Of a stretch of 64,000 bases of DNA, positions 309-15,658 are shown one piece after another (within the stretch, counting starts at the first letter, position 1; each line of letters starts with the position of its first letter). The notes below the pieces were generated by a model. It saw only the letters and a list, made by a program, of their open reading frames with translations. It did no database searches and was not told where the DNA came from. The position numbers were made by a program, and so were the translations under genes. The stretch lies in IMG/VR virus record IMGVR_UViG_3300042695_002264, positions 1 to 64,000 of that record; one strand, given 5' to 3'. Source of the DNA: a virus.

Positions 309-385
309 GTAAACCCTTGATATTCAACAACTTACGCTGGCGCGCGGGGCGCGCGGCCGTAAGTCCTTGATAATTAACGACTTAC
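309..385. repeat. 77-bp element copy 1 (core inverted)
   Basis: gtaaacccttgatattcaacaacttac / gctggcgcgcggggcgcgcggcc / gtaagtccttgataattaacgacttac (27+23+27). Confidence 0.95.
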
Positions 386-523
386 GTAACGTCATCAAGA
401 GTGTCATAAAGAATGTCATAGCGCAAAATTCAAACGCTCGTTTGCCAAAACGTCAACAAAAATAGTTTCGCTAATCGCAAAAAAATATCTCGCTTTTCGC
501 GCGTCCTGTGCTATTCTGTATAC

Positions 524-706
524 ATGAGAAACAACAACAGAAGCTGGCGCGACGAAGAACGCGAAGCAACCCTCGACTACCCGCTAGGTGTGGATCGTGA
601 AGATCCCGCCTACCAGCAAAGCCCAGACGCTTACGAGCGTGAAATCGAGCGCCTTAATCGGCACGAAGGCTGGGAGCGTAATCGCGGTGGTTACTACCGC
701 CGATGA
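524..706 (+). CDS. small charged hypothetical early protein
   Basis: 60-aa ORF; ATG 6 nt after an extended -10 (TGCTATTCT). Confidence 0.75.
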   Translation: MRNNNRSWRDEEREATLDYPLGVDREDPAYQQSPDAYEREIERLNRHEGWERNRGGYYRR

Positions 707-714
707 AAAATCGC

Positions 715-743
715 TTGACTTTCAGCCCCATTTCACCGATACT
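715..743 (+). promoter_or_regulatory. sigma70-like promoter, leaderless-type
   Basis: TTGACT-17-GATACT, ATG 750 six nt downstream. Confidence 0.65.
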
Positions 744-749
744 TTCAAC

Positions 750-914
750 ATGACAGAAAACACCACAACTGGCTGGCCCGAAGTCTGGAACTTCGACGAA
801 CCCAAAGACGACAACCTCACGCCCGAACAAGCGTTCGACATCCTTTTCGGCTACGCCGAGGAGCGTCATCGCAACGACCCGTGCGCTCGTCCCGCCCCTA
901 AACCCAAACACTAA
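750..914 (+). CDS. small hypothetical protein (MTENTTTGWPEVWNFDE...)
   Basis: Internal ATG of track ORF 588..914, fits the promoter at 715-743. Confidence 0.7.
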   Translation: MTENTTTGWPEVWNFDEPKDDNLTPEQAFDILFGYAEERHRNDPCARPAPKPKH

Positions 915-918
915 CACT

Positions 919-1128
919 ATGACAAACACAGACGGCATCATCAAGTCGCTTGAAACTCTCATCAAGCATGAGAAAGCAATTCAGCGTCAAGAAAAAGAAA
1001 TTGAAAAATTAAAAGACATCATTGATGGCTCTTTGCAGACGATGCAGGGCCTTCTTGTGTTGAGCGCTGTTCTCTCAAAAGAGATTGAAAGCTTGCACAA
1101 TAATAAGCCTTCTTTTGGACTAAACTAA
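919..1128 (+). CDS. small coiled-coil hypothetical protein
   Basis: 69-aa ORF directly after the previous stop. Confidence 0.7.
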   Translation: MTNTDGIIKSLETLIKHEKAIQRQEKEIEKLKDIIDGSLQTMQGLLVLSAVLSKEIESLHNNKPSFGLN

Positions 1129-1281
1129 CATGAGCAAAATCATTATGACAATCGACACGCGACCGCTTGCGCGTGTCATAGAGCGCAGCGTCCGCAAGGC
1201 ATCTTGCCGCCCATCCTTCGCCATGCGTGTCAAGAAAAAATTCGCGCGCAAGGCAAAGTTTTTTCGCGGTTGGTCTGATCA

Positions 1282-1358
1282 GTAAAGCTTTGAATATCAA
1301 CGACTTGCGGCGGCGCGCCCCGCCGCGCGGCATAACCCATTGCAAATCAACGACTTGC
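1282..1358. repeat. 77-bp element copy 2
   Basis: gtaaagctttgaatatcaacgacttgc / ggcggcgcgccccgccgcgcggc / ataacccattgcaaatcaacgacttgc. Confidence 0.95.
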
Positions 1359-1369
1359 AATATATAGTA

Positions 1370-1386
1370 TTCAGGTAGCGTGCCAA
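1370..1386 (-). promoter_or_regulatory. sigma54-like -24/-12 motif
   Basis: TTGGCACGCTACCTGAA on - strand, at the fixed offset from the element. Confidence 0.55.
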
Positions 1387-1426
1387 TATTGGCGAATCTA
1401 TAAAAATAAAAAAATAAAAAAACCTA

Positions 1427-1455
1427 TTGACGAAAACATCAAACCGAGTTAGCAT
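1427..1455 (+). promoter_or_regulatory. sigma70-like promoter, leaderless-type
   Basis: TTGACG-17-TAGCAT, ATG 1462 six nt downstream; A-tracts upstream. Confidence 0.65.
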
Positions 1456-1461
1456 AAATGT

Positions 1462-1926
1462 ATGAAAAATAAAATTATAACAATCATAGTCACTGCATTG
1501 GTAACCGCAGCAGTTACTTTCGTTACTCTATCACTTACAGATAGCGAACCGCTGACCGACTGGGTAAAAATGGCGAAGTTAAGAATTAAAGGATGCTCTG
1601 ATCCCGAGGCGCACCTGAGCAACGCCAAGCGGATAAAGGGTTGGCTTACCGCAGTTGGAGAGCATGAGCCTGTTAGTGTGAGAATCAGAGAAGGTGTAGG
1701 CTTGCCGCCAGACCAGAGTTTGGCTCCTAAAGGGGTTAAACTCACTCCAACAGCTACAGAAATGTTCATTTTAGTTCGTTCTTCTGATTTTGAGAACAAT
1801 ATCCGTGAGATATACGAATTTGATCTCATGAAAATTATGGTGGATAAGGATGCAAGAAAACAATTAAGAGAACTTATTACCAAAACTAAAGCACAGAGCA
1901 ATGAGTTTGGTTTCGGTAGTAACTAA
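1462..1926 (+). CDS. hypothetical protein with N-terminal signal/membrane anchor
   Basis: 154 aa; MKNKIITIIVTALVTAAVTFVTL; stop lies inside element copy 3. Confidence 0.8.
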   Translation: MKNKIITIIVTALVTAAVTFVTLSLTDSEPLTDWVKMAKLRIKGCSDPEAHLSNAKRIKGWLTAVGEHEPVSVRIREGVGLPPDQSLAPKGVKLTPTATEMFILVRSSDFENNIREIYEFDLMKIMVDKDARKQLRELITKTKAQSNEFGFGSN

Positions 1927-1995
1927 CTGAAATTCAACAACTTGCAGAGCCAGATCGGGCCGCGCGGCGTAACTCCTTGATATTCAAAGACTTAC
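1919..1995. repeat. 77-bp element copy 3
   Basis: gtaactaactgaaattcaacaacttgc / agagccagatcgggccgcgcggc / gtaactccttgatattcaaagacttac. Confidence 0.9.
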
Positions 1996-2006
1996 GCAAA
2001 ACGCTA

Positions 2007-2023
2007 CGCAATAGCCATGCCAA
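2007..2023 (-). promoter_or_regulatory. sigma54 -24/-12 motif (canonical)
   Basis: TTGGCATGGCTATTGCG matches TGGCAYR-N4-TTGC. Confidence 0.65.
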
Positions 2024-2097
2024 GTTGCAGAAAAAAAATTTCACACAATCGCAAAAAAATCCCTTGCATTTTTGCGCGTCCGCGCTATATTGAAATC

Positions 2098-2613
2098 ATG
2101 AAAGAGAGAAAATCACTAAACGAAAAGCCTCTGACTTGCCTGTTCGTCGGCGTTACCCTCGCTTTGGTATCAGCAGGAGTTGCCATTTATGGGTTGCGGT
2201 TTGGGTTTGCGTCTATTGCCTTTTTGCTTGTTGCTGCTGCAATCTTAAATATCGCAGCGTGGTTTTTTGCCACCCCTGTCGTCTCTTTCGTTGGCGATTT
2301 TGTAGGAAAATTTTTTACTGGAAGTCAAAACTTTAGCAAGCCCCAGCCTGCTTACAGCCTGCCAGATGGTCTTGCCGCTACCGGACAAAACGCTTGCGCT
2401 ATCCTTGCCTACAATGAACTTGCAAAAAATCATCCCGAAGAAATCTTGCCTCATCTTCGCGTGATGAGAATATGGATTGAAAAAATGAATGACGTTGACG
2501 CTGCGGTTATGGCTTACAATCTCGCCTTGAAAAAAATTCGCGGACAAAAAAATCGCAACGAGTTTACAAAAATGGCAAAAAATAATTTCAGCAAATTCAT
2601 CAGCTTTGAATGA
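2098..2613 (+). CDS. two-TM membrane protein with TPR-like helical C-terminus
   Basis: ATG 2098 six nt after TATATT; two hydrophobic segments, then helical repeats (PQPAYS...AILAYNELAKNHPEE). Confidence 0.75.
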   Translation: MKERKSLNEKPLTCLFVGVTLALVSAGVAIYGLRFGFASIAFLLVAAAILNIAAWFFATPVVSFVGDFVGKFFTGSQNFSKPQPAYSLPDGLAATGQNACAILAYNELAKNHPEEILPHLRVMRIWIEKMNDVDAAVMAYNLALKKIRGQKNRNEFTKMAKNNFSKFISFE

Positions 2614-2679
2614 GTGTCATAGCAATGTCATAAACGCTCGGTCAAACGGGCGTTTTACTTTGCGCGAAACCAATTCTAT

Positions 2680-2756
2680 ATAAACCCTTGAAAATCAACG
2701 ACTTACGGCGGCGCGCCCCGCCGCGCGGCGTAACCCATTGCAAATCAACAACTTAC
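2680..2756. repeat. 77-bp element copy 4
   Basis: ataaacccttgaaaatcaacgacttac / ggcggcgcgccccgccgcgcggc / gtaacccattgcaaatcaacaacttac. Confidence 0.95.
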
Positions 2757-2767
2757 AACATACATCA

Positions 2768-2784
2768 TTCAGATAGCGTGCCAA
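2768..2784 (-). promoter_or_regulatory. sigma54-like -24/-12 motif
   Basis: TTGGCACGCTATCTGAA. Confidence 0.55.
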
Positions 2785-2866
2785 CTTTGCAGAGGGGCAA
2801 AAAATAAAAAAAATAAAAAACGAAAAAATCCCTTGCGTTTTTGCAGTCCTGTGCTATTCTTTAAGC

Positions 2867-3019
2867 ATGGAAAAGAAAATGACTCAATATGCGGACAAGC
2901 TCAACGCCTTCCGCGCTGGCGAAATCACCGAGGACGAATGGAAAGCGTTCTGTTTTGAGGCTCTCTCCGAGATTCTCGAAGACACGAAAGATGTCCTCAT
3001 CAGGCTGAAAAATGCTTGA
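2867..3019 (+). CDS. 50-aa hypothetical protein (below ORF-track cutoff)
   Basis: MEKKMTQYADKLNAFRAGEITEDEWKAFCFEALSEILEDTKDVLIRLKNA; ATG 6 nt after TGCTATTCT. Confidence 0.75.
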   Translation: MEKKMTQYADKLNAFRAGEITEDEWKAFCFEALSEILEDTKDVLIRLKNA

Positions 3020-3050
3020 CCCAATCGCAACAATCAAACATACTACGACC

Positions 3051-3227
3051 ATGAAACAAACACCACAAAAAGCCCAACTCTGGGCAGTCGGAAACAAAGT
3101 CTATCGCGTCATCCGCAACGAAGGCGACAAGACTCACGTTCATCATCACGGGCAAATGGCCCTGTTCTATACGCGCCATCTGAAAATGGCGACACCTTCA
3201 CAAGTTGCAGAATACTTGGGAAAATAG
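3051..3227 (+). CDS. small beta-rich hypothetical protein
   Basis: TTGACC(3016)-17-CATACT-6-ATG; resembles 9548..9718. Confidence 0.75.
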   Translation: MKQTPQKAQLWAVGNKVYRVIRNEGDKTHVHHHGQMALFYTRHLKMATPSQVAEYLGK

Positions 3228-3263
3228 TTTGACAATCACCACAAAACCTAACAGAATAACAAC

Positions 3264-3479
3264 ATGACAAAAAAACAATTCACCGCAATCGCTAACATCT
3301 TGGGAAAACGCTTGGCCGAAAAAGTCAAAGCACCCATCGGAGAATACGAAGTTGTCGAAGTCCTCGCGTTGGACTTGGCGAAATACTTCTCGACAGAAAA
3401 CCCTCGTTTCGACGAAGATCGCTTTCTGGAAGCTGTTTTTACTCACACCCCTAACATCCCTGTGGGATCATATAAATAA
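3264..3479 (+). CDS. small phage protein (MTKKQF..IA...NPRFD..RF..A type)
   Basis: TTGACA(3229)-17-CAGAAT-6-ATG; NPRFDEDRFLEA motif typical of small phage proteins. Confidence 0.8.
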   Translation: MTKKQFTAIANILGKRLAEKVKAPIGEYEVVEVLALDLAKYFSTENPRFDEDRFLEAVFTHTPNIPVGSYK

Positions 3480-3483
3480 TCAC

Positions 3484-3663
3484 ATGAAAAAATACATCAC
3501 ATTCGACCGCATTGCCTACGCAATGTCCCTCTCCACCTTCATCTTCATCGCCGTGACGCTTTGCGCTGCTTGCGTTGAATTGCAAAACAGAACCAGCAAG
3601 AACCAAAAGCAAATGCAGGAAGAAGTCCGCGCAATGTTTGCCCACATCGAGGCACCTCTATGA
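3484..3663 (+). CDS. small single-TM protein
   Basis: MKKYITFDRIAYAMSLSTFIFIAVTLCAA; ATGA overlap with the next gene. Confidence 0.7.
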   Translation: MKKYITFDRIAYAMSLSTFIFIAVTLCAACVELQNRTSKNQKQMQEEVRAMFAHIEAPL

Positions 3664-3860
3664 TTACCCCCAATATCCAAAAAGCTCTTGAGTCAAACGG
3701 AGTTCGTTTCTTTGCAAAAGACTTTCTCATGGAAGGTATGCGGAAAGACTGCGTTGACGCCGTGCATGATGCAAAACTCGTTTACGAATTGCTAAAAGAA
3801 CGCATGGAAAAAATGCTTGCAATCGAACCCGAAGACGAATACATTAAAGCCAATGAGTAA
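3660..3860 (+). CDS. hypothetical protein
   Basis: 66-aa ORF, translationally coupled. Confidence 0.7.
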   Translation: MITPNIQKALESNGVRFFAKDFLMEGMRKDCVDAVHDAKLVYELLKERMEKMLAIEPEDEYIKANE

Positions 3861-4041
3861 AGACCAAGTCAAAGCCGTGTGCGATTACTCGCATGATGTC
3901 ATAATGAAAATCAAAGCCGTGTTCGGATTCAAAAAGAAAAGTCCTTCGCTTCTTTGTCATAGTCTCGCGCACCTCAACACCGCGACATGGCTTGAGCGCG
4001 CGGTCTGCAACGGCACAATCATGGACTACAAGCCGCGATAA
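3853..4041 (+). CDS. hypothetical protein
   Basis: ATG overlaps the previous ORF end; stop 1 nt before element copy 5. Confidence 0.55.
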   Translation: MSKDQVKAVCDYSHDVIMKIKAVFGFKKKSPSLLCHSLAHLNTATWLERAVCNGTIMDYKPR

Positions 4042-4042
4042 C

Positions 4043-4119
4043 GTAAAGCGCTAATAATCAAGCACTTACGGCGGCGCGCCCCGCCGCGCAGCGTAAGTCG
4101 TTGAAAATCAATCACTTAG
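4043..4119. repeat. 77-bp element copy 5
   Basis: gtaaagcgctaataatcaagcacttac / ggcggcgcgccccgccgcgcagc / gtaagtcgttgaaaatcaatcacttag. Confidence 0.95.
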
Positions 4120-4130
4120 GCAAAAGCACT

Positions 4131-4147
4131 TTCATACAGTGTGCCAA
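4131..4147 (-). promoter_or_regulatory. sigma54-like -24/-12 motif
   Basis: TTGGCACACTGTATGAA. Confidence 0.5.
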
Positions 4148-4230
4148 GTCCGCTGTCAAGTAGAAAAAAAATATTTTTTTAATCGTAAAAAATTCCTTGC
4201 GTTTTTGGCATATTGTGGTATTCTTTAATT

Positions 4231-4470
4231 ATGAAAATCACCAAGCCCGACCTCTACGAAGCCCTCATCCAAGCGCGTGTCGCCTTATCGAAAGACATCC
4301 GCGAAACTTTGCGCGGTCGCCACCTCTCCTACGTTCAAGACCTCTCGCGGAAATCCATCCGCGAAAAAATCGCGGCCTATCGGTTGCTCTCCAACCTCTC
4401 CACGATCAACGCGGAAAGCTACTCGGACAACCGCTCTCTGCGTCACGTTAAAAAAGCTCTTGCCAAGTAA
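4231..4470 (+). CDS. hypothetical basic protein
   Basis: TTGCGT...TGGTATTCT-6-ATG. Confidence 0.75.
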   Translation: MKITKPDLYEALIQARVALSKDIRETLRGRHLSYVQDLSRKSIREKIAAYRLLSNLSTINAESYSDNRSLRHVKKALAK

Positions 4471-4495
4471 CGCAATCTCTGACAAAATCACCACC

Positions 4496-5179
4496 ATGAA
4501 ACTACTAAGCACCAACAATACCAAAATCAAAAAAGGCGAAAAGCTCGGCTGGCGCACTTACGGCCTTTCACTTTCACCCGCTGGCAAAAGTGGAAAACAA
4601 TTCTGTCCGCATCGCTCGGCTGGCTGTGAGTTTGCTTGTCTCGACACTTCGGGCATGGGCATCTTCTCAAACGTCCAAGACGCACGCCTTGCAAAGTCGC
4701 GTTTCTTCATCGACAACCGCAACGAGTTTCTCGCTCAGTTGCATAAAGAATTGCACAATGCCGAAAAGTGGAGCGCAAAAAATAATACGCCTGTGGCCGT
4801 GCGTCCGAACGTGCTTTCTGATCTGCCTTTCCATAAGCTGATCGACATGGCGCGCTTTCCGTCAATTCAGTTTTACGATTACACGCCGAACCTTCAACGC
4901 ATGATGCAGTTTCTAAACGGCGAGTTGCCTAAAAATTATCACCTGACCTTCTCGCGCAAAGAGGACAATCAGCATCGTGTCCACGCTGTTGTTGCCGCTG
5001 GCGGTAACGTGGCCGCTGTCTTTAGTGAGTTGCCCGAAACCTACCTCGGAAAGCCTGTCATAAACGGCGACGAAAGCGACTTGCGTTTTCTCGACGCGCA
5101 GGGCGTGATCGTTGGACTCAAAGCAAAAGGCAAAGCTCTCAAAGATCAATCTGGCTTTGTGGTGCAAGTTGGCGTATAA
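4496..5179 (+). CDS. GP88-like phage protein (Cys-cluster)
   Basis: MKLLSTNNTKIKK...CPHRSAGCEFACL...VRPNVLSD...QFYDYT...NYHLTFS...GDESDLRFLD...IVGLKAKG, typical of the GP88 family; probable start ATG 4496. Confidence 0.8.
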   Translation: MKLLSTNNTKIKKGEKLGWRTYGLSLSPAGKSGKQFCPHRSAGCEFACLDTSGMGIFSNVQDARLAKSRFFIDNRNEFLAQLHKELHNAEKWSAKNNTPVAVRPNVLSDLPFHKLIDMARFPSIQFYDYTPNLQRMMQFLNGELPKNYHLTFSRKEDNQHRVHAVVAAGGNVAAVFSELPETYLGKPVINGDESDLRFLDAQGVIVGLKAKGKALKDQSGFVVQVGV

Positions 5180-5250
5180 TGAAAACCTATGGAAATCATA
5201 ATCCTTCTTGCTGGCATTATCGGTGGCGCATTACTAATAAATAAAAAATT

Positions 5251-5409
5251 ATGACACTAAACCTAATCGCACGAAAAAACTTGTTTCGCTTGTCTGAATA
5301 CTTTTTCAGCCTTGCGGTATGGTGGGAACGCGCTGGCGTTATGACACTCCAAAAACTTTTCTTTATGGGGTGGCAAAAATGCCTTGACACACGAGACAAA
5401 TTACGGTGA
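5251..5409 (+). CDS. 52-aa hypothetical protein
   Basis: MTLNLIARKNLFRLSEYFFSLAVWWERAG...; stop 1 nt before element copy 6. Confidence 0.5.
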   Translation: MTLNLIARKNLFRLSEYFFSLAVWWERAGVMTLQKLFFMGWQKCLDTRDKLR

Positions 5410-5410
5410 C

Positions 5411-5487
5411 ATAACCTACTGAAAATCAACGACTTACGGCGGCGCGCCCCGCCGCGCGGCGTAAGTGCTTGAAAATCAACGACTTAT
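5411..5487. repeat. 77-bp element copy 6
   Basis: ataacctactgaaaatcaacgacttac / ggcggcgcgccccgccgcgcggc / gtaagtgcttgaaaatcaacgacttat. Confidence 0.95.
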
Positions 5488-5498
5488 ACAAAATGCCA

Positions 5499-5515
5499 TT
5501 CAAGAAGCATGCCAA
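5499..5515 (-). promoter_or_regulatory. sigma54-like -24/-12 motif
   Basis: TTGGCATGCTTCTTGAA. Confidence 0.55.
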
Positions 5516-5616
5516 CTCACAGAAAAAACGCTCGTTTGAATTTTCGTCAACAAAAATACTTTTCAGAATCGCAAAAAATCCATTGCATCGTGCCGTGCCT
5601 GTGCTACTCTTTACCT

Positions 5617-5748
5617 ATGCAAGCGAACACCATCACCGACGACTTCAACACGCAAACCCAAAGCGACGAGTTTGCCTCCGAATTTGAGGCTTGGCTCGAC
5701 GCGCAGGAACTGAAATACTGGCAGGAAATCGACGCTCGCGGAAATTAA
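5617..5748 (+). CDS. 43-aa acidic protein
   Basis: TTGCAT...TGCTACTCT-6-ATG; MQANTITDDFNTQTQSDEFASEFEAWLDAQE. Confidence 0.75.
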   Translation: MQANTITDDFNTQTQSDEFASEFEAWLDAQELKYWQEIDARGN

Positions 5749-5752
5749 TTTT

Positions 5753-5989
5753 ATGACAAACACAAACCCACTACACGGCTACCTCTCCGACTGCTGCGGA
5801 GCCGAACACGACATCAACGCCGAACACCACATTCTCAACGAGAGTGTGCGTGGAGGATGCTCCGCTTGCGGACACTACTCGGAGTTTTCCCCTGTGGAGG
5901 AAAACGTCCGGCACAATCAACGCATCAGCCTCTCCGCTCTCAATGCGTTCGTGCCAGACGAGTTGAACTCTTACGAGCAGCCGTGGTAA
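5753..5989 (+). CDS. small Zn-ribbon-like protein
   Basis: SDCCGA...CSACG motifs. Confidence 0.75.
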   Translation: MTNTNPLHGYLSDCCGAEHDINAEHHILNESVRGGCSACGHYSEFSPVEENVRHNQRISLSALNAFVPDELNSYEQPW

Positions 5990-6032
5990 ATTGTTTGACA
6001 CTCTCAACCCTAACAACTAACATCATCAATCT

Positions 6033-6527
6033 ATGAACAAAGCAAAAGTCCTAATCAGTCCTTACGGAAACGGCATCGCTGTCGGCCTTGAGGGAAACAA
6101 AGATCAAATCGAACGCGAATATAATCGCTTTTTTAATTGGGGCGCAGCTGGTGCTGGCGCGAATGTCGAACGTGGCAACGGCGACTCTGAAATCCAGCAC
6201 GGAGAACTTGGCGACTCTTACCTCCACTATGTCGGAGAAGGGTTTGCCTACTTCCTGTCATCGGAAAAAGATATGCTTCGCGCTATGACATATGAACACT
6301 TGACCAAGTGGCAAGATAGCGAAACGTCAGCGCAATATAAAACAAAGCCACGCAATCACAAGAGGGATTCGGGCAAGGTATTCCGCGAACACGCGCAGAT
6401 CGCAGCGCAAGACGAATATAATGAAATCGAACGCGAGAACTTCATGCTCTACCAGAAAGCTCCCGCATACATCTTCCGCGAGCTTGATGGCGGCGCGCCG
6501 TCTTGGAGAAGTGAAACGGAGGACTAA
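6033..6527 (+). CDS. hypothetical protein
   Basis: 164-aa ORF with TTGACA-17-TAACAT upstream. Confidence 0.8.
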   Translation: MNKAKVLISPYGNGIAVGLEGNKDQIEREYNRFFNWGAAGAGANVERGNGDSEIQHGELGDSYLHYVGEGFAYFLSSEKDMLRAMTYEHLTKWQDSETSAQYKTKPRNHKRDSGKVFREHAQIAAQDEYNEIERENFMLYQKAPAYIFRELDGGAPSWRSETED

Positions 6528-6531
6528 TATA

Positions 6532-6801
6532 ATGAAAAAAATACTTGTCACCGTTAAGCAAATTATAGAAGTCCCAGACTCTTTCAAAATTACAAGTTTT
6601 ACAGAGCCAGGAGATGTAGCGTTTGATTATATAAAAATAGGAAAAAAATTAACTGCGCCAGATATAACATGGTTTGACTATGACAAAGTTTCTGGCGTTG
6701 GAAGCGAGAGCGACGAACTCGTTGAGCGTCTCGCCCCTGCAATAGTTGACTACTCCTTGCAAGAATTTTCTTTCGATGAAGATCCTAACGTAAGTTGTTG
6801 A
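6532..6801 (+). CDS. acidic hypothetical protein
   Basis: MKKILVTVKQIIEVPD...; TGA lies inside element copy 7. Confidence 0.7.
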   Translation: MKKILVTVKQIIEVPDSFKITSFTEPGDVAFDYIKIGKKLTAPDITWFDYDKVSGVGSESDELVERLAPAIVDYSLQEFSFDEDPNVSC

Positions 6802-6866
6802 AAATCAACGACTTGCGGCCCCGCGCCCCGCGCCCATGTGTAAGTGCTTGATACTGAACAACTTAT
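6790..6866. repeat. 77-bp element copy 7
   Basis: gtaagttgttgaaaatcaacgacttgc / ggccccgcgccccgcgcccatgt / gtaagtgcttgatactgaacaacttat. Confidence 0.9.
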
Positions 6867-7181: not shown

Positions 7182-7189
7182 TTTTTTTT

Positions 7190-7264: not shown

Positions 7265-7330
7265 AAAAAATTTCAAAAAATAATCAAAATACCCGTTGAC
7301 AAAACCATCAAAAAACCCTATTCTTAAAAC

Positions 7331-9263: not shown

Positions 9264-9301
9264 TCCTTGCAATCCATTTCAAAATCCAATACATTAAGAA
9301 C

Positions 9302-9526
9302 ATGAACAAAACCACTACCATCATCACCCGCCGTTCACCCTTCACCCAAAAAGTTAACAGGATGGAGATTCCTCTCTCCCATTCGGAGTTTGAGAAGAGG
9401 ACAATTCTTTGGCAGTCTGGGATGCTCATTCAAGATGCGTTCCCCATGCTGTCCGCTGATGAGCGCGAGTTCATCAAAACTGGTATCACTCCCGAAGAGT
9501 GGGAACAGATGTTTGGAGAAGACTAA
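9302..9526 (+). CDS. conserved small phage protein
   Basis: IQDAFPMLSADEREFIKTGITPEEW motif common in phages; own promoter. Confidence 0.85.
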   Translation: MNKTTTIITRRSPFTQKVNRMEIPLSHSEFEKRTILWQSGMLIQDAFPMLSADEREFIKTGITPEEWEQMFGED

Positions 9527-9547
9527 TATAGAAAGGAGGAAAATATA

Positions 9548-9718
9548 ATGAAACTAATCGAAGGTGCTATTTATAACTACAAAGGGGAAGCTGTTCGTTT
9601 CCGTAAACAGATTGGCGTTGTTGCTTTCTTGTCGCGTCGTAAGCGAGGTTCGTTTGTTGGACGAACTGATTTGCTCAAGAAGGCAAATAAAAAGCAGGTC
9701 GATAAATTCCTCAAATAA
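9548..9718 (+). CDS. 56-aa basic protein
   Basis: Strong SD AAAGGAGG at 9532; MKLIEGAIYNYKGEAVRFRKQ...; stop 2 nt before element copy 9. Confidence 0.75.
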   Translation: MKLIEGAIYNYKGEAVRFRKQIGVVAFLSRRKRGSFVGRTDLLKKANKKQVDKFLK

Positions 9719-9720
9719 GC

Positions 9721-9797
9721 GTAAAGCTCTCGTAATCATGGGGTTACGAGGGCGCGCCCCGCCGCGCTGCGTAAGTCGTTGGAAATCAACCACTTGC
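9721..9797. repeat. 77-bp element copy 9
   Basis: gtaaagctctcgtaatcatggggttac / gagggcgcgccccgccgcgctgc / gtaagtcgttggaaatcaaccacttgc. Confidence 0.9.
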
Positions 9798-9808
9798 GCA
9801 TTTGTCCT

Positions 9809-9825
9809 TTCAGGAACCGTGCCAA
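9809..9825 (-). promoter_or_regulatory. sigma54-like -24/-12 motif
   Basis: TTGGCACGGTTCCTGAA. Confidence 0.55.
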
Positions 9826-9902
9826 TTCCCAGAAAAATATTTTCAATCAAATTGCAAAAAAAGGTTTGCTCGCTCATACAAAAACACTTATTCTTATGAA
9901 GT

Positions 9903-10682
9903 ATGAGAAACCTAAACCTAACACTGCACTGCGGCGGTCACGCCGTGGAATCCACCCAAGTTCAGCAAACTCCCACTCCCGCACCCACGGATTCGTGGAT
10001 GCCCATCCCGCACTTCGCGCTCATCGAGCGTCTGCGCGAGATCGTCGGTAGTGCTGGCTTGACCATCACGCAAGAGGCGCACGCCCTTGCTCGCAACGGC
10101 CTTCGCTACTTCGGATTGTTCCAAGTGGCGGGAATCCCCAACTTCTCACAGGAGTCCAACATCGGGACTGTGATCGGCTTGCGCAACTCGCACGACAAGT
10201 CGTTTCCCGCTGGCATCAACGCTGGTTCCGCGCCTTTCGTGTGCGACAACCTCGCGTTTCACAACGAGATCAAAATCGCTCGTCGTCACACCAAGTTCAT
10301 CATGCGCGACCTTCCTTCGCTCCTTTCGGGCGCATTCGGAAAGTTGCTCAACACTTGGGGCAACAACGCCAAGCGTATCGAGGCTTACCAGTCTTGCGCG
10401 CTCAAGGACGTTCAAGCGCACGACCTCATCGCCAAGGCTTACCGCTGTGGCGCAGTGAGCAAGACCGCTCTGGCGGACGTTCTCGACCAGTGGCACAACC
10501 CCGAACACGCCGAGTGGTCGGAGCAGAAGAACCTCTGGGGTCTTCACAACTCCTTCACCAACGTCATGCGCGGAAACGTGCTCGCGTTGCCCAAGCGTAG
10601 CGATGCGCTCCACGGACTTCTCGACCCTATCGCAGGCGTGGCGCTGGCGAGGGCAGAAGACGCCGAGGCCATCACGGTCTAA
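9903..10682 (+). CDS. DUF932-family phage/plasmid protein
   Basis: Signature LRNSHDKS...FVCDNL...RHT. Confidence 0.85.
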   Translation: MRNLNLTLHCGGHAVESTQVQQTPTPAPTDSWMPIPHFALIERLREIVGSAGLTITQEAHALARNGLRYFGLFQVAGIPNFSQESNIGTVIGLRNSHDKSFPAGINAGSAPFVCDNLAFHNEIKIARRHTKFIMRDLPSLLSGAFGKLLNTWGNNAKRIEAYQSCALKDVQAHDLIAKAYRCGAVSKTALADVLDQWHNPEHAEWSEQKNLWGLHNSFTNVMRGNVLALPKRSDALHGLLDPIAGVALARAEDAEAITV

Positions 10683-10698
10683 ATTCTGAGACGCACAA

Positions 10699-10736
10699 AA
10701 GGGCTTGGCAGGGCAACCTGTCAAGTCTTTTTTTTG
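10699..10736 (+). terminator. intrinsic terminator
   Basis: gggcttggcagg-gcaa-cctgtcaagtct followed by a T-run. Confidence 0.8.
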
Positions 10737-10753
10737 CAAAAATTCATTGTTGT

Positions 10754-10830
10754 GTAAGTCATTGAATATCAAGCACTTGCGCCGCCGCGCCCAGCTGCCC
10801 AGCGTAAGTCTTTGATTGTCAAGGGTTTAC
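10754..10830. repeat. 77-bp element copy 10
   Basis: gtaagtcattgaatatcaagcacttgc / gccgccgcgcccagctgcccagc / gtaagtctttgattgtcaagggtttac. Confidence 0.9.
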
Positions 10831-10893
10831 ATTTTAATGCAAAAAATATCTTGACCGCACACGCAAAAGACTTTATTGTCATTATATCACCAC

Positions 10894-11220
10894 ATGAAAC
10901 TATCAGAAATTCAAGCCATTGCAAACCTCACAGCAAAATTCCTCGGACTCCCAATCAAACCCAAGGCCGAAATTACTACCAATAAACGAGGCCGCGCCTA
11001 CACCACGCAGGGCCGCTTCAATATTCCAGAGTGGGCCTTCAAGCACGGAGAAAAGTTTGTCATATACTATGTTGTGCATGAAGTCTGCCACTTTTACGGA
11101 GGAACATTAGATCACGGCAAACTCTTTTGTCAAGTCGAAGACCGCGCATTAAAATTTTGGGGGCTTTACATTCAACGCAAAAAAGTTTATCCTAATCCAC
11201 AATCAATCTACAAACTATGA
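10894..11220 (+). CDS. SprT/YgjP-like zincin metallopeptidase
   Basis: YYVVHEVCH...DHGKLF. Confidence 0.75.
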   Translation: MKLSEIQAIANLTAKFLGLPIKPKAEITTNKRGRAYTTQGRFNIPEWAFKHGEKFVIYYVVHEVCHFYGGTLDHGKLFCQVEDRALKFWGLYIQRKKVYPNPQSIYKL

Positions 11221-11465
11221 GCAAAAATACCTGCCCTGCTGATTACGATGGCGAAATGCTTGTTATCGGTGGCTATGTAAAATACGATGGAAAGACTTGG
11301 GAAGTCCTTGACTACGAAGATTCCGAACAGCCATACTTTGATGATAACTACACGGAACATAGTATTCTTTTATTGGCTTGCCGCTCGCAAGAGGAAGACA
11401 ATATTTGGATACCAGATTATGAGGTAGAGCAAACTGAATATCAGCAATTGTGTTTTGAACTATGA
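11217..11465 (+). CDS. acidic hypothetical protein
   Basis: ATGA-coupled 82-aa ORF. Confidence 0.7.
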   Translation: MSKNTCPADYDGEMLVIGGYVKYDGKTWEVLDYEDSEQPYFDDNYTEHSILLLACRSQEEDNIWIPDYEVEQTEYQQLCFEL

Positions 11466-11544
11466 AAAATATCGTTCTATTTGTCGCTCTACCTATCACT
11501 ATTTGTGTCTGGTCGTTCACTATTTATGGAGTAATTAAATTTTT

Positions 11545-11617
11545 GGGGTGGTAGCTCAATGGTTAGAGCGTGCGGCTCATAATCGCTTGGTTGTCGGTTC
11601 GAATCCGACCCGCCCCA
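11545..11617 (+). tRNA. tRNA with CAT anticodon (Ile2 or elongator Met)
   Basis: Acceptor ggggtgg/ccgcccc; loop ctCATaa; last base is the first base of element copy 11. Confidence 0.9.
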
Positions 11618-11693
11618 CATCTATTTGAAAATCAAGCACTTACAGATGAGTGCCCCGCCGCGCCGCGTAAGTCGTTGATATTCAATGGCTTAC
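11617..11693. repeat. 77-bp element copy 11
   Basis: acatctatttgaaaatcaagcacttac / agatgagtgccccgccgcgccgc / gtaagtcgttgatattcaatggcttac. Confidence 0.9.
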
Positions 11694-11736
11694 AAAAACA
11701 CTTGACACCAATCGCAACCTGTGATACATTTAGAGG

Positions 11737-11901
11737 ATGAACACTACTATTGCATCCTGTCGTGAACAAATCCAAGAGGACTTGATTTGCTTGCTTGAAG
11801 CTGCGAATAATCTTGGCCTCAAAGAACATCTTGAAGAAGTCACTACGCTGGCCTGTAAAATTGTGGTTGACAACTTCAAAAAACTTGAGAAGATAAGCTA
11901 A
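11737..11901 (+). CDS. 54-aa hypothetical protein
   Basis: TTGACA(11702)-17-TACATT-6-ATG; MNTTIASCREQIQEDLICLLE. Confidence 0.7.
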   Translation: MNTTIASCREQIQEDLICLLEAANNLGLKEHLEEVTTLACKIVVDNFKKLEKIS

Positions 11902-12164
11902 TGAACGACTACAAACTACCCAAAGACGCCTACTCTGCTGCTCGCTATGACGAGTTACACTTTGCTGTTGCCCACTATGGCACAGCCATGCACCGAAACC
12001 TTTGGGACTTGCTTGTTGACGCTGGCTTGAGCAAGCGACAAATCTTTTCCCAATACATGAAGGTTCTTCGTGTGACTACGGCTGTAAATAAAGACATTCT
12101 CTATTGTGTAGGGACTGGTAATTTTTCAATCAAACCTGTTGACAAAAAGAGCAAAACCCTATAA
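11901..12164 (+). CDS. hypothetical protein
   Basis: TAATG-coupled 87-aa ORF. Confidence 0.7.
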   Translation: MNDYKLPKDAYSAARYDELHFAVAHYGTAMHRNLWDLLVDAGLSKRQIFSQYMKVLRVTTAVNKDILYCVGTGNFSIKPVDKKSKTL

Positions 12165-12172
12165 TATCAAAA

Positions 12173-13042
12173 ATGATGAAAACGCTAAACGCACTAATCA
12201 AAACCGACGAGTCCATCACCGCAGTTCTTGATGGAGTTCCCAAGACGATGAGTTGTAACCATCCGTCTTTCACCGAGGCGATCACTTGCCTCGCTACTGG
12301 AGACTACGAAACCCTCGACACCCTGTTCGATGTTTCCGAGTCTATCACCCGCAAGTTTAATGCCGATAATGTCGGCGGTGTGGAGATCACCGATGGCGTG
12401 ATCTACTACCAAGGTGAACCTGTCCACAACTATGTCGTTGATCGTATCTTCGACTTCATGGACGAGGGCTTGCCGTTTGAGCCGCTTGCCAAGTTCCTTA
12501 ACAAACTCATGGCGAATCCTTCTCGCCGTGCGGTTGAGGAATTGTATAAGTTCCTTGAACACAAGCATCTTCCGATCTGTCAAGATGGCGACTTCCTTGC
12601 CTACAAGAGTGTTCGTCAAGACTACATGGATCACCATAGCGGCAAGTTCTTCAATGGTGTTGGTGAGGTCTTGGAAATGCCCCGCAACGCTGTCTGTGAC
12701 GATGCCGATGTGGGTTGCTCCTATGGCTTCCATGCTGGTAGCCATGCGTATGCCAGCACTTTTGGTGGCGGCGACTCTCGCCTTGTGATCGTCAAGATCA
12801 ATCCTGCCGATGTTGTGTCGGTTCCGAAAGATTGCGACTGCCAGAAGTTGCGGACTGCTCGCTACGAGGTTGTCAAAGACTTCGATGGAGTCTATAAGAA
12901 ACCTCTCAACACGGAGTTCAATTCCTACGATGAGGACTACGATGACGAGGGCTACGAAGATGAAGATTATGGTTGCACGGATAAAAATTGCAACTATCAT
13001 AATGTGAGGGATAGCAAGGGTCGCTTCATGCGGAAGCGGTAG
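12173..13042 (+). CDS. rIIB: rIIB-like protein
   Basis: AYKSV..DY.D.HSGKF.N.VG..LEMPR..V....CSYGFHAGS..YA..F....VKINPADVVSVP.D..QKLR..RYEV. Confidence 0.9.
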   Translation: MMKTLNALIKTDESITAVLDGVPKTMSCNHPSFTEAITCLATGDYETLDTLFDVSESITRKFNADNVGGVEITDGVIYYQGEPVHNYVVDRIFDFMDEGLPFEPLAKFLNKLMANPSRRAVEELYKFLEHKHLPICQDGDFLAYKSVRQDYMDHHSGKFFNGVGEVLEMPRNAVCDDADVGCSYGFHAGSHAYASTFGGGDSRLVIVKINPADVVSVPKDCDCQKLRTARYEVVKDFDGVYKKPLNTEFNSYDEDYDDEGYEDEDYGCTDKNCNYHNVRDSKGRFMRKR

Positions 13043-13058
13043 TCGGTGGTGCGACAAA

Positions 13059-13098
13059 AGGGGGTGGGGCTTGTGGTGGGCCTCACCCCCAACTTTTT
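13059..13098 (+). terminator. intrinsic terminator
   Basis: gggggtggggctt/gggcctcaccccc hairpin followed by a T-run. Confidence 0.7.
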
Positions 13099-13116
13099 GC
13101 TCTTGTCTTGTTTGTT

Positions 13117-13193
13117 GTAAGTGGTTAATACTCAAGCACTTGCAATCGCGCGCCCCGCCGCGCCGCGTAAGTCGTTGGCGTTCAACGTGTTAT
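13117..13193. repeat. 77-bp element copy 12
   Basis: gtaagtggttaatactcaagcacttgc / aatcgcgcgccccgccgcgccgc / gtaagtcgttggcgttcaacgtgttat. Confidence 0.9.
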
Positions 13194-13264
13194 GATTTTG
13201 TGAAAAAAATCGCTTGCCATCCCACTCAAATACCACTATTCTGATTACTCAACCTACTACTACA

Positions 13265-15511
13265 ATGATCGTTACACAATCCAAAGCTAATGTCGTCACG
13301 CAAGGTGTTCAAGGTGCTGTTTCTTTCGGCATCAAACAAGAAGGTCTTGCCCACATCTTCAACGTCCTCCGCAATCAGTTGTATTCGGACAAGATTCTTG
13401 CAGTCTTGCGCGAGTATTCCTGTAACGCTGTTGACTCTCACACCGAAGCTGGTCACAATCGTCCGATTGAGGTTACGCTTCCTTCTCGTCTGTCTCTGGA
13501 ACTCAAGATTCGTGACTACGGCATCGGCCTTTCCGAAACTGACATCCAAGAGATTTATGCTTTCTATGGTGAATCAACGAAGCGTAAGAGCAACTCCCTC
13601 ATCGGGCAGTTAGGTCTTGGCAGTAAGTCCGCTTTTGCCTATGGTGACAACTTTGTCATCAATAGCTACTACAACGGCGTCAAGACTATCTACAACGCTT
13701 ACATTGATCCCTCGCAGATCGGTCAAATCGCTAAACTCGCATCCGCTCCGACTAACGAAGCGAATGGTGTTGAAATTGTGATTCCGGTAAAACCCGCCGA
13801 CTGCGAAACTTTCGTCTCGACTGCTCGTAGCTTGTTCGCCTTCTTCAAGGTCAAGCCTATCGTGCGCGGTGCTGCCAACTTCACTTACGAAGAAAAGCCC
13901 TCCATTTATAGTGGCGCGGATTGGCGCATCTTCAAGGCAGATCGTAACTCCTATGGTCGTAACTGCGTTGCTGTCATGGGCAATATCGGCTACACCATTT
14001 CCTCGTCTGCTCTCAAGCTCGATGAGAACAATGATGCCGAAGCAACGATTGAGCGTCTGCTCAACAACTGCGACATTCAACTCGACGTTCCGATTGGCGA
14101 ACTCGACATCGCTGCCTCGCGTGAAGGTTTGCAATACACGGATCGCACCATTGACAATATCAAAAAGCGCATCCTTGTCATTCGTGACTTCCTCGTTGCT
14201 GACATTACCAAGCAACTCAAAGGCGCACAAAGTCTGTGGTCGTTCAAGCGTATGCTTGGTGAAATGCACAACTTCAATAGTCCCTACTATGTTGTGTGTA
14301 ACGCTATGCGCGGCAAAAATGGTTACGATTACAACGGCAAAGCCATCAAAGATTATACGATCAACTTTGGCAACTCGCGTGGATTCAAACTCTACACGCC
14401 GCGCAAGGGTTATCTGAATGGTTCTTACATTGTCAAAGGCAGTAAGAATGAGGACATGACTCATCTGATTAGCCTCGACGGAGGTATGGTCATCGTGGAG
14501 AACACGAAGAAGATCAAGACGCAGATCGTCAATCACATCTTCCCCATGCTTCAGAATGATGGCAAGGTGATCGTGTTTGAGCCGCTTAATGCTGCTGATC
14601 GTAAGAAGCAGATGGACGCTCTTGGTCTTGTTGACTCTGACATCGTTGACATGGCAACCTTGCCCAAGGTGTTGCTGCCTCGCGCAACTCGTCGTGCGAA
14701 CAACAATGCCCTCATGGTCAATCGTAGCAAACACACCAGCAAAGTGTTTTCGATTGATCCCAATGCCAAAAGCCTTTCATCCTATCACAAGGTCAAAAGT
14801 GACTACTGGATGGAAGATGATCTCGACCTGTCCTCGCTCGACCCGAAGAAATACTGCTACGTTGAGATTGAGCGGTTCATGGGTAAGATCGACGGACATG
14901 AAATCAGCCCGACAAGTCTAATGTCTTGCTGTGCCAAGATTGAAACTCTTGCCAAACTTACCAAAGCTAAAGGTATCGTTGCTCCTATCATCGTCGGTAT
15001 CAAAGGTGGTGGCACTACGCTTAACAAAGCCAAGATGAGCAAACTCATGGACTTCAAAACTTTCTTCACCAATGCGTTGAAAGAAGTCGAAGCTCAAGCC
15101 AATGTCGGTGAGATTCTTTATGCTGAAGAAATCTATCAGAAGTTTGCTGGTAAGAACCAATGCTTGCGCGGTGAGGTTCGCAAACTGGTCAACGCGACCA
15201 ATGCGCCGAACACGCATCGTGTCTTGGAAGAAGTCTTGGCTTTGTCTGCGGAGAAAGACAATGCAACGATCAAGACTTGCATCGAAAGCATCTGCGGACA
15301 CATCGGGGTTCCTTCAAAGAATGTCCGTTCCAAACGTAGTGCCAAACTCGATGCTATGGAAGTCAAGGCGACCAAACTTGCCCACTCCATGCGCCTGTTG
15401 CAAGCGATTGACCAGTATAATCTCCAGACCTATCGTGATGGTCACAAAGAGCATCGTGAGGCTTGCGTGGATTATATTCAGACCCGCGACCATCTGCTCG
15501 CGGGAGTATAA
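13265..15511 (+). CDS. rIIA: rIIA-like protein (N-terminal GHKL ATPase)
   Basis: LYSDKILAVLREYSCNAVDSH, RDYGIGLS, YGESTKR.SN..IG.LGLGSKS.FAY, LDIAASREGL; probable start ATG 13265. Confidence 0.9.
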   Translation: MIVTQSKANVVTQGVQGAVSFGIKQEGLAHIFNVLRNQLYSDKILAVLREYSCNAVDSHTEAGHNRPIEVTLPSRLSLELKIRDYGIGLSETDIQEIYAFYGESTKRKSNSLIGQLGLGSKSAFAYGDNFVINSYYNGVKTIYNAYIDPSQIGQIAKLASAPTNEANGVEIVIPVKPADCETFVSTARSLFAFFKVKPIVRGAANFTYEEKPSIYSGADWRIFKADRNSYGRNCVAVMGNIGYTISSSALKLDENNDAEATIERLLNNCDIQLDVPIGELDIAASREGLQYTDRTIDNIKKRILVIRDFLVADITKQLKGAQSLWSFKRMLGEMHNFNSPYYVVCNAMRGKNGYDYNGKAIKDYTINFGNSRGFKLYTPRKGYLNGSYIVKGSKNEDMTHLISLDGGMVIVENTKKIKTQIVNHIFPMLQNDGKVIVFEPLNAADRKKQMDALGLVDSDIVDMATLPKVLLPRATRRANNNALMVNRSKHTSKVFSIDPNAKSLSSYHKVKSDYWMEDDLDLSSLDPKKYCYVEIERFMGKIDGHEISPTSLMSCCAKIETLAKLTKAKGIVAPIIVGIKGGGTTLNKAKMSKLMDFKTFFTNALKEVEAQANVGEILYAEEIYQKFAGKNQCLRGEVRKLVNATNAPNTHRVLEEVLALSAEKDNATIKTCIESICGHIGVPSKNVRSKRSAKLDAMEVKATKLAHSMRLLQAIDQYNLQTYRDGHKEHREACVDYIQTRDHLLAGV

Positions 15512-15533
15512 TTGTTAGTGGTGTAGTGGTGGG

Positions 15534-15571
15534 TGCGGGGCGTGCCGAGTGGTGCGCCCCGCATTTTTTTT
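15534..15571 (+). terminator. intrinsic terminator
   Basis: tgcggggcgtgcc-gagt-ggtgcgccccgca followed by T8. Confidence 0.85.
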
Positions 15572-15581
15572 AGATTAAAAT

Positions 15582-15658
15582 GTATCCCCTTGAAAATCAA
15601 CGACTTACAACGCGGCGGCGGGCGCGCTCGCGTAAGTCCTTCATAATCAACAACTTAC
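15582..15658. repeat. 77-bp element copy 13 (core inverted; last copy)
   Basis: gtatccccttgaaaatcaacgacttac / aacgcggcggcgggcgcgctcgc / gtaagtccttcataatcaacaacttac. Confidence 0.9.

Follow-up and report, generated by a model that had tools for sequence, protein, structure and literature searches.

The early-gene region of an uncultured 170-kb phage is partitioned by a 77-bp element of fixed length, which is also present in many related phages. Each copy consists of two 27-bp arms around a 23-bp GC-rich core, and the arms match the IHF consensus in sequence. We put at about even the chance that the element is a host-IHF-bound architectural "bend-clamp-bend" module that acts near early promoters and doubles as recombination homology.

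Copies of the element and their geometry

A sequence-only reading of the 64,000-nucleotide window analyzed here had listed 13 copies, each split exactly into 27, 23 and 27 bp with no indels. All 13 start coordinates were right, and the split holds in every copy. The copies and the region that they occupy are as follows.

309 to 385, minus strand: element copy 1 (27 + 23 + 27 bp), with its best profile score on the minus strand
1282 to 1358, plus strand: element copy 2; the small ORF upstream ends at a stop codon within the first bases of the copy
1919 to 1995, plus strand: element copy 3
2680 to 2756, plus strand: element copy 4, directly 3' of a terminator-like hairpin
4043 to 4119, plus strand: element copy 5
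5411 to 5487, plus strand: element copy 6, the top match to the family profile
6790 to 6866, plus strand: element copy 7; the upstream ORF terminates within arm L
8409 to 8485, plus strand: element copy 8; its first 10 bp are shared with a tRNA 3' end (tRNA at 8348 to 8418)
9721 to 9797, plus strand: element copy 9; left arm degenerate, and kept so in the orthologous copies of four relatives
10754 to 10830, plus strand: element copy 10
11617 to 11693, plus strand: element copy 11, adjoining a tRNA 3' end (tRNA at 11545 to 11617), with a promoter 8 bp downstream
13117 to 13193, plus strand: element copy 12, flanked by the rIIB terminator and the rIIA promoter
15582 to 15658, plus strand: element copy 13, which closes the array, with its core inverted relative to the consensus
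1 to 15658, no strand: GC-rich island (46 to 48% GC), of the same extent as the array

The statement that no copy follows 15.7 kb was correct with one exception: a whole-genome scan located a 14th copy at genome positions 169,688 to 169,764, spanning the junction of the circular map, and found no further copies or lone arms elsewhere in the genome. Since the contig ends share a 255-bp overlap, the array is unbroken across the circular map. Orientation varies among the copies, because the minus strand gives the better score for the copy at 309, and the core of the copy at 15582 carries its G-run on the plus strand, the inverse of the consensus orientation. The island with which the array coincides stands out from the 30 to 38% GC found elsewhere, and all genes inside it are on the plus strand.

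The proposal that selection acts on geometry gained strong support. Alignment of 96 distinct family copies with MAFFT gave 77 columns and zero gaps. In a clade survey of 127 IMG/VR loci (1.28 Mb), 350 neighboring arm pairs were spaced at exactly 50 bp and no other arm-pair spacing occurred more than 6 times, so that the 50-bp spacing is kept clade-wide. Across the same loci, the core is always 23 bp long and approximately 87% GC, and its sequence varies between subfamilies. Within one subfamily, the core sequence is conserved and one orientation predominates (C-rich on the coding strand in approximately 90% of copies), which a role as a pure spacer leaves unexplained.

The element had been put forward as undescribed, and comparison with Rfam, with cultured phages and with the literature that was searched bears this out. 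Megablast and blastn searches of cultured phages returned a tRNA match only, with no array or element. Literature searches with the arm sequences yielded irrelevant matches only, and those on phage intergenic repeats, IHF and sigma-54 turned up no account of the element. Among 185,579 species genomes, a pattern with the core of this subfamily was present in only five short MAG contigs. The complete 27-bp arm was absent from 401 sampled bacterial genomes of the phylum of one MAG that carries the element on a small contig; therefore, the arm is not a known type of chromosomal IHF site. No such host chromosomal repeat was found in the species-genome scan or in the 401 genomes.

BIME-1 (RIP, or RIB) of E. 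coli, in which REP palindromic units flank an IHF site, is thought to organize DNA topology between transcription units. Like the phage element, it is a repeated extragenic mosaic of GC-rich units and an IHF consensus site. The order is reversed in the phage element, where two IHF-type sites surround one GC-rich unit, and the element is phage-borne and of invariant length. Correia elements and MITEs are small intergenic repeats with terminal inverted repeats and internal IHF sites, and the element resembles them as a small intergenic repeat with inverted repeats and IHF-type sites. The bases on either side of the element (Y at -1, R at +1) prolong the palindrome, and there is no direct target-site duplication. 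Without such a duplication, and with all copies in one array of conserved order, there is no sign of transposition, and a transposable MITE or Correia element was rejected.

The arms as putative IHF-type sites

The earlier reading counted a perfect WATCAANNNNTTR in 22 of 26 arms, which is exact, and inclusion of the 14th copy brings the count to 24 of 28. Genome-wide, WATCAANNNNTTR has 61 matches, 24 of them in elements that make up 1,078 of approximately 170,000 bp, an enrichment of approximately 100-fold. Each arm is a two-fold symmetrized IHF consensus with two mirror-symmetric halves: in 96 copies, arm positions 14 to 26 track WATCAANNNNTTR column by column, and its mirror image is retained at positions 2 to 14. 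Position 26 is A or G in 96/96 copies; at position 2, 95/96 have T or C. Invariant AA and TT steps (positions 9/10 and 18/19) lie 9 bp apart around the W position, a spacing that agrees with the kink geometry described for IHF and HU (PMC5829579). TTR occupies arm positions 24 to 26 and thus, in sequence, stands 6 bp past the nearer kink, as expected of an IHF site. In the broader family, approximately 63% of arms fit the IHF consensus WATCAANNNNTTR. In silico support for the IHF reading of the arms therefore includes the 9-bp spacing of the kink steps and the W and R positions, where the consensus is degenerate. The description of the arm as a quasi-palindrome fits the consensus, which is palindromic, but real copies systematically avoid perfect complementarity.

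Phage-encoded HU or IHF was not found in the phage genome or in four large relatives; therefore, among IHF-type binders a host protein is the likeliest, although a phage protein of another family may bind the arms. At arm positions 22, 23 and 27, conservation is stronger than the IHF consensus demands, and this pattern would suit another dimeric protein too. The arms could then be operators of a non-IHF dimeric protein, either a phage early or virion protein or a host regulator, and the 14 double operators would switch early transcription on or off. The dyad symmetry of the arms, the conserved blocks at both ends and the three additional conserved positions are consistent with this explanation. 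So is the weak covariation of arm positions 5 and 23 in the broader family, as if half-sites tracked one protein, and clade-conserved small proteins, among them one with a Zn ribbon and one that is sigma-like, are encoded near the arrays. However, no candidate binder was identified, the IHF match extends to degenerate positions and to the 9-bp kink spacing, and conservation is confined to short A/T-rich words distributed over 25 bp, as is usual where a protein reads shape through the minor groove. We regard non-IHF operators as unlikely. Boxes for FNR/CRP, Fis, CtrA and TyrR were rejected on their commonly known spacings; in an FNR box, for example, 6 bp separate TTGA and TCAA, compared with 3 in the arm.

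Pairing within the element was compared with shuffled sequences. In arm hairpins, 72.8% of cells were paired, versus 73.2% in shuffles. For the long stem the value was 76.0%, versus 78.8 ± 0.5%, and 500/500 shuffles were at least as high; the middle four positions of arm L were only approximately 35% paired. The broader family likewise showed no excess pairing and no compensatory signal. These pair counts ruled out a model of three hairpins and one of a long stem with a core hairpin. The GCGGCG/CGCCGC core hairpin noted earlier can form, but its folding z-score is approximately -0.1 in the subfamily, and with a value of -0.5 in the broader family it was dropped as a conserved feature. Because pairing is not conserved and falls below the shuffled expectation, a protein site in double-stranded DNA is favored over hairpins, whether attC-like or of RNA. 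This argues for reading the 77-bp element as a cis-acting site in double-stranded DNA rather than as an RNA or a folded recombination site.

We infer the following mechanism, which presupposes a host IHF of matching specificity. One host IHF dimer would bind each 27-bp arm and bend it sharply. The 23-bp GC-rich core would serve as a stiff, hard-to-melt spacer that fixes the two bends 50 bp apart, and each element would thereby adopt a single fixed three-dimensional "bend-clamp-bend" fold. If IHF binds as predicted, this phage clade builds a precise DNA architecture from a host nucleoid protein at every early unit. In addition, the clade contains hundreds of natural variants of this near-ideal, symmetric IHF site, all with the partner at a fixed distance, and would thus suit studies of the effect of two sharp bends with a stiff spacer on promoters, supercoiling domains and recombination.

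The same 28 strong sites could instead act as a sink that titrates host IHF, or as a ratchet that grips the first-entering DNA and helps to pull the genome in. Many near-ideal sites do lie within approximately 16 kb of co-directional early genes. However, fixed 50-bp pairing, a GC-rich core and an element at every cassette boundary would all be superfluous in a sink. Either the map is circular or the array starts approximately 18 kb from the ends of a terminal-repeat record, and the maps do not fix the order of entry. We find this explanation hardly credible.

Early promoters and the sigma-54-type motif

The elements sit 3' of gene ends or terminators and 8 to 107 bp upstream of early promoters (measured to the -35 box). 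Most cassettes begin with their own sigma-70-type promoter; promoters lie mainly downstream of elements and are directed away from them. Examples of these promoters and of the terminators are given below.

8503 to 8531, plus strand: sigma-70-type early promoter, 17 bp 3' of copy 8; the -10 box ends 6 nt before the ATG
11702 to 11730, plus strand: sigma-70-type early promoter, 8 bp 3' of copy 11
13214 to 13242, plus strand: sigma-70-type promoter of rIIA, 20 bp 3' of copy 12
13060 to 13090, plus strand: terminator-like hairpin and T-run, immediately 5' of copy 12
15531 to 15566, plus strand: terminator-like hairpin and T-run, immediately 5' of copy 13

Several upstream genes end in or beside an element without a separate terminator; the element is therefore probably transcribed. 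Some early promoters, such as those at 7296 and 12139, have no element. No helical phasing between element and promoter was found across 13 measured distances (8 to 107 bp), which argues against stereospecific activation of the downstream promoter. A role as an intrinsic terminator was rejected, since a T-run follows the element in only 29/217 copies of the broader family and 2/83 of the subfamily.

From this placement, a host-IHF-bound element might act as an architectural boundary or upstream module between successive early transcription units. Possible effects are the pinning of supercoils between strong tandem units, continued access to promoters, or placement of the core beside flanking promoter DNA. 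IHF is reported to pin plectonemes and to split DNA into topological domains (PMC9519438).

A sigma-54-type motif is aimed into the element in 45/98 subfamily copies and places the predicted start at the element edge. The following sites were identified in the array.

1371 to 1386, minus strand: sigma-54-type motif (-24/-12), at a fixed offset, into copy 2
2008 to 2023, minus strand: sigma-54-type motif, into copy 3, with the consensus TTGC as -12 element
2769 to 2784, minus strand: sigma-54-type motif, into copy 4
4132 to 4147, minus strand: sigma-54-type motif, into copy 5
5500 to 5515, minus strand: sigma-54-type motif, into copy 6
9810 to 9825, minus strand: sigma-54-type motif, into copy 9

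In the 45 motif copies, TTGGCA and TG are invariant at sigma-54 spacing, and C is present at the -12 position in only 21/45. No such motif is present in half of the subfamily or in the majority of the broader family. A sigma-70 assignment suits two copies; it was rejected since the family consensus has no proper -10 box and TG is invariant at the sigma-54 position. Neither a phage sigma-54 nor its activator was found in the genome, where the PF00158 matches were RuvB-like and other AAA+ proteins.

The pairing of a -24/-12-type motif with an adjacent IHF-type site, in about half of the subfamily, resembles sigma-54 promoters that use both IHF and an enhancer, among them the flagellar promoter of Caulobacter whose enhancer is located 3' (Gober and Shapiro 1992, as cited in PMC9437464). 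With a U-turn at arm R (centered near +14), the core, at about +39 to +41, would come to lie next to the -12 region. Unlike those promoters, the element lies downstream of the predicted start, no sigma-54 or activator gene was found in the phage, and the motif is limited to half of the copies. We offer tentatively, as somewhat short of an even chance, the wider proposal that a clade of uncultured aquatic phages carries an undescribed class of cis-element. Two host IHF dimers at 50-bp spacing, with a GC-rich clamp, would give each early transcription unit a defined fold, and part of the family would also form a compact unit of sigma-54 promoter, IHF site and downstream partner.

The motif also bears on whether the element acts as RNA, namely, as the antisense 5' part of a transcript from the sigma-54-type promoter, as an RNase III-type site or as a 3' stabilizer of early mRNA. 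The predicted start at the element edge, the upstream genes that end at the element without a terminator and the C-rich coding strand of the core are compatible with such roles. Yet no compensatory helix changes were found, pairing is below chance, and the motif is restricted to half of the subfamily and a minority of the broader family; nor are T-runs 3' of the element general. In Rfam, only tRNAs reached the gathering score, and no match overlapped any element at E ≤ 1. The suggestion that the elements are templates for small structured RNAs thus lacks covariation support, even though the motif aims into about half of the copies, and we judge an RNA role very unlikely.

Cassette boundaries in related phages

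Comparison of 20 related loci revealed that elements bound cassettes that are gained, lost or moved among related phages. In the left half of the array, whole inter-element units differ: cassettes c2 and c3 are unique to this genome among the relatives compared, c4 occurs at two different places, and one related locus (L006) has novel cassettes. In the right half (c8 to c12), the elements are present and gene order is the same in all relatives compared. Alignment ends cluster in or just after elements, with 28/101 within 50 bp versus 15% expected. Since the same ~80 to 200 bp are repeated between cassettes, elements would also serve as homology for cassette gain, loss and movement.

These differences would also be expected if elements were mainly recombination crossover points, used either by homologous (PeSL-like) exchange or by an unrecognized IHF-aided site-specific enzyme. 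In addition to the cassette differences and the clustered alignment ends, element orientation differs between orthologous positions, and arrays are often at contig ends. However, the tyrosine recombinase domain PF00589 was not found in the genome or in four large relatives, and the serine recombinase domain PF00239 was not found in this phage genome, which extends the earlier remark that no recombinase is visible from the window to the whole genome. Orthologous copies retain position-specific variants, with little sign of concerted evolution, the order of c8 to c12 is constant, and homology alone does not account for the rigid 50-bp geometry. Recombination as the main function appears decidedly unlikely, and we retain it as a second use of a host-IHF-bound architectural module.

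As a marker of the rapidly changing early cassettes of a large group of uncultured phages, the element can serve as an annotation signature and for tracking cassette exchange. Two kinds of cassette site had been suggested for it. Like integron attC sites, it forms imperfect inverted repeats between co-directional small gene cassettes. An attC site acts as a folded single strand, varies in length and needs IntI, whereas in the element pairing is selected against, length is fixed and cassettes have their own promoters. Hairpin maintenance, an IntI-type recombinase and promoterless cassettes were all lacking, and the integron-like version was abandoned. The PeSL-like version fits the boundaries seen in relatives. 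PeSL (promoter-early stem-loop) cassettes are known from T4-type phages (PMC2839356, PMC4122927). Like the element, they are short conserved intergenic modules between small early genes, located at indel or replacement boundaries without a dedicated recombinase (PMC2839356, PMC4122927). A PeSL is a composite of terminator hairpin and early promoter (PMC2839356, PMC4122927); the 77-bp element is neither and stands between them. It also differs from a PeSL in lacking conserved pairing and in its makeup, two IHF-type palindromes with a GC-rich spacer of fixed length.

The element array and its family

All 13 copies of the 77-bp element that the sequence-only reading had placed between 309 and 15658, each with the start then assigned to it, were recovered by repeat search, direct reading and an nhmmer profile. 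Every copy in this genome (G000, an IMG/VR virus record that is complete per CheckV) splits into a 27-bp arm, a 23-bp core and a 27-bp arm. The earlier view that no copy follows 15.7 kb held in part: a genome scan of the remaining ~154 kb found no further copy and no solitary arm, but a 14th copy lies at genome positions 169,688 to 169,764. The first 255 bp of the contig (window 1-255) are repeated as its final 255 bp (genome 170,264-170,518) with one mismatch. This terminal repeat indicates a circular (170,263 bp) or terminally redundant map, though the record is classed as linear, and on the circular map the array runs continuously from 169,688 to 15,658. The array genes are all on the plus strand, and the extent of the array coincides with a GC-rich island (46-48% GC versus 30-38% elsewhere). 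The array is confirmed as real, and the case for it is stronger than in the first description. The island is sharp, spanning window 1-15658 plus genome 168-170 kb; it could be of foreign origin, or the early genes could have adapted toward a host-like composition.

A core-plus-arm pattern retrieved 20 related IMG/VR loci; with G000 included, these hold 107 copies without gaps, of which 96 are distinct. When the arms alone were required, with any 23-bp core, more than 116 further stretches were found among the matches listed. A total of 852 arm-like sites was counted in 127 loci (1.28 Mb), and 350 neighbouring arm pairs are spaced by exactly 50 bp, with any other spacing occurring at most 6 times. 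The 23-bp core length is constant between subfamilies and the core sequence varies; fixed spacing with drifting sequence, as proposed from the 13 copies, is a property of the wider family. Mean GC over 321 distinct elements is 87% in cores and 39% in arms. Complete relatives carry 8 to 15 elements each, restricted to one ~15-kb region in the large related phage genomes G001 and G002 and divided in another, G004, between two clusters, one on each side of the record's ends.

No match to the element was found in Rfam or in 50,697 cultured-phage records, and a literature search with the arm sequences gave no hit; the initial reading had likewise not recognised it as a described element. In 185,579 species genomes, a pattern carrying this subfamily's core matched only five short phage-like MAG contigs, and 401 sampled bacterial genomes contained no exact arm.

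Three further features of the family were observed. Variant elements in seven loci (L041, L054, L056, L071, L078, L090 and L097) have an AT-rich 23-bp core and keep only the core-proximal half-arms as a simple inverted repeat, and could represent either an ancestral form or a distinct one. At the upstream array edge of three loci (L007:12244-12660, L010:2684-3100 and L015:3369-3615), elements occur in groups of two or three that alternate in orientation, with exactly 93 bp separating them. In many loci the arrays very often lie at IMG/VR contig ends, either because assemblies break in repeats or because arrays lie near physical genome ends.

Arm anatomy and folded structures

Arm positions 3, 10, 18, 24 and 25 are invariant, and positions 14-26 read W-ATCAA-N4-TTR, with A or G at position 26 in 96/96 copies and A or T at position 14 in 90/96. 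The mirror image is retained at positions 2-14 (T or C at position 2 in 95/96), and the TT step (9/10) and AA step (18/19) flank the W position at a distance of 9 bp from each other. HU/IHF kinks have a spacing of ~9 bp, and in the IHF-H' complex 6 bp separate the TTR thymine from the closer kink (PMC5829579). Since the column pattern and the 9-bp step spacing match this kink geometry, each arm is a two-fold symmetrised IHF-type site. The element flanks extend the palindrome, with a pyrimidine just before and a purine just after. A perfect IHF consensus is present in 24/28 arms, which supply 24 of the genome's total of just 61 matches (~22 expected genome-wide from base composition); the arms carry the consensus as claimed, and their assignment to IHF is a reading from sequence. 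In the broader family, which shares the arms and varies in core sequence, the perfect consensus falls mostly on the core-adjacent arm half and is convergent in 28 elements and divergent in 1.

An attC-like or RNA structure received no support. In a three-hairpin model 72.8% of cells were paired versus 73.2% in shuffles, and in a long-stem model 76.0% versus 78.8 ± 0.5%, with 500/500 shuffles at least as high; related copies are not independent, and these figures are not probabilities. With pairing not above shuffles, the integron-like and structured-RNA roles considered at first gain no support from the base-pairing. Nor does the core GC hairpin stand as a conserved feature, as its stability in this subfamily is no higher than composition predicts (z ~ -0.1). 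Of the core-flanking half-sites, CGAC is combined with GTGC in 16 copies and GCAC with GTCG in 21; a complementary pair hardly ever occurs. Columns 20 and 58 show the same anti-correlation in 220 broader-family sequences. The pattern points to hairpins and cruciforms being selected against, in a site that would work as duplex DNA.

Early transcription units and cassette boundaries

A terminator-like hairpin precedes five copies, and the others come directly after a stop codon or the 3' end of a tRNA. Host-type promoters lie downstream of the elements at 8, 17, 20, 20, 53, 68, 68, 68, 76, 77, 86, 95 and 107 bp; no helical phasing is seen in these 13 values. Strict promoter matches in the broader family also fall mainly 3-120 bp downstream and are aimed away from the element. 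Some early promoters have no element. For most of the element-associated promoters, 6 nt separate the promoter end from the ATG; among early promoters generally (window 480-13270), most have a -10 box ending at that distance, with no Shine-Dalgarno sequence. Because of this arrangement, the early mRNAs would be leaderless. The word TGTCAAG(C), whose opposite strand is a -35-like TTGACA, recurs ~32-36 bp downstream of many elements of both subfamilies (in related loci, for example L009:8601-8655 and L039 after 3150), and around copies 1 and 4 there are groups of similar TGTCATA words.

A minus-strand sigma-54-type motif occupies the right flank of 45/98 subfamily copies, six of them in this genome. 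TTGGCA and TG occur in every copy of the motif, spaced like the -24 and -12 elements of sigma-54 promoters, and transcription is predicted to start at the element edge. On geometry only, if the DNA made a U-turn about arm R (centre ~+14), the core at ~+39 to +41 would come to face the -12 region. The pairing of such a motif with an IHF-type site resembles the Caulobacter flagellar promoters, which are cited in PMC9437464 as having a 3' enhancer and IHF sites.

The elements had also been proposed as cassette boundaries, and differences among relatives agree with this. Units of the left half (c0-c7) are gained, lost and moved between elements: c2 and c3 are unique to this genome, c4 is placed either ahead of c0 or behind c1, and novel units occur in other genomes. 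In every relative, cassettes c8-c12 retain one order, and elements are present there as well. Differences nearly always involve whole inter-element units, the exception being one L001 junction (cU-c4) that lacks an element, and alignments end within 50 bp of an element at ~2 times the expected frequency.

The best-supported reading is a putative duplex-DNA "bend-clamp-bend" module of IHF type at early-unit boundaries that would also supply recombination homology. The element would mark the borders of early transcription units, predicted binding and bending of the arms would form the module, with a predicted effect on transcription, and the same elements would double as homology between cassettes.

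The phage and its clade

The related loci share a gene module of terminase, ERCC4 nuclease, sigma-70-region-2-like protein, Zn-ribbon protein and PhoH. The module is also present in G000 at 150.9-155.0 kb on the minus strand (150,887-154,974 for the ERCC4-type nuclease, sigma-70-region-2-like, Zn-ribbon and PhoH genes). Because this conserved module is common to the loci, the element-bearing phages form one clade. The sigma-70-region-2-like protein is probably a sigma-like factor that the phage brings itself. No close cultured relative of G000 was found.

The absence of a visible recombinase from the window extends to the whole of G000, in which no tyrosine or serine recombinase, HU/IHF, sigma-54 or sigma-54 activator was found encoded; HU/IHF and tyrosine recombinases were likewise not found in four large relatives. 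G000 does encode a DNA polymerase, a DnaB-like helicase, a distant terminase and many tRNAs, with rIIA and rIIB at the array's right end. The rIIB homologue (window 12173-13042) is only 289 aa long, and its match to the long rIIB profile is confined to the C-terminal quarter of that profile. Its gene is the upstream one of the pair, and an element separates it from rIIA (window 13214-15511). The minus strand also codes for a RuvB-like AAA+ protein (window 35378-36346) in which the N-terminal and C-terminal RuvB domains are both present. Such a protein is unusual among phages and may be connected with branch migration in recombination.
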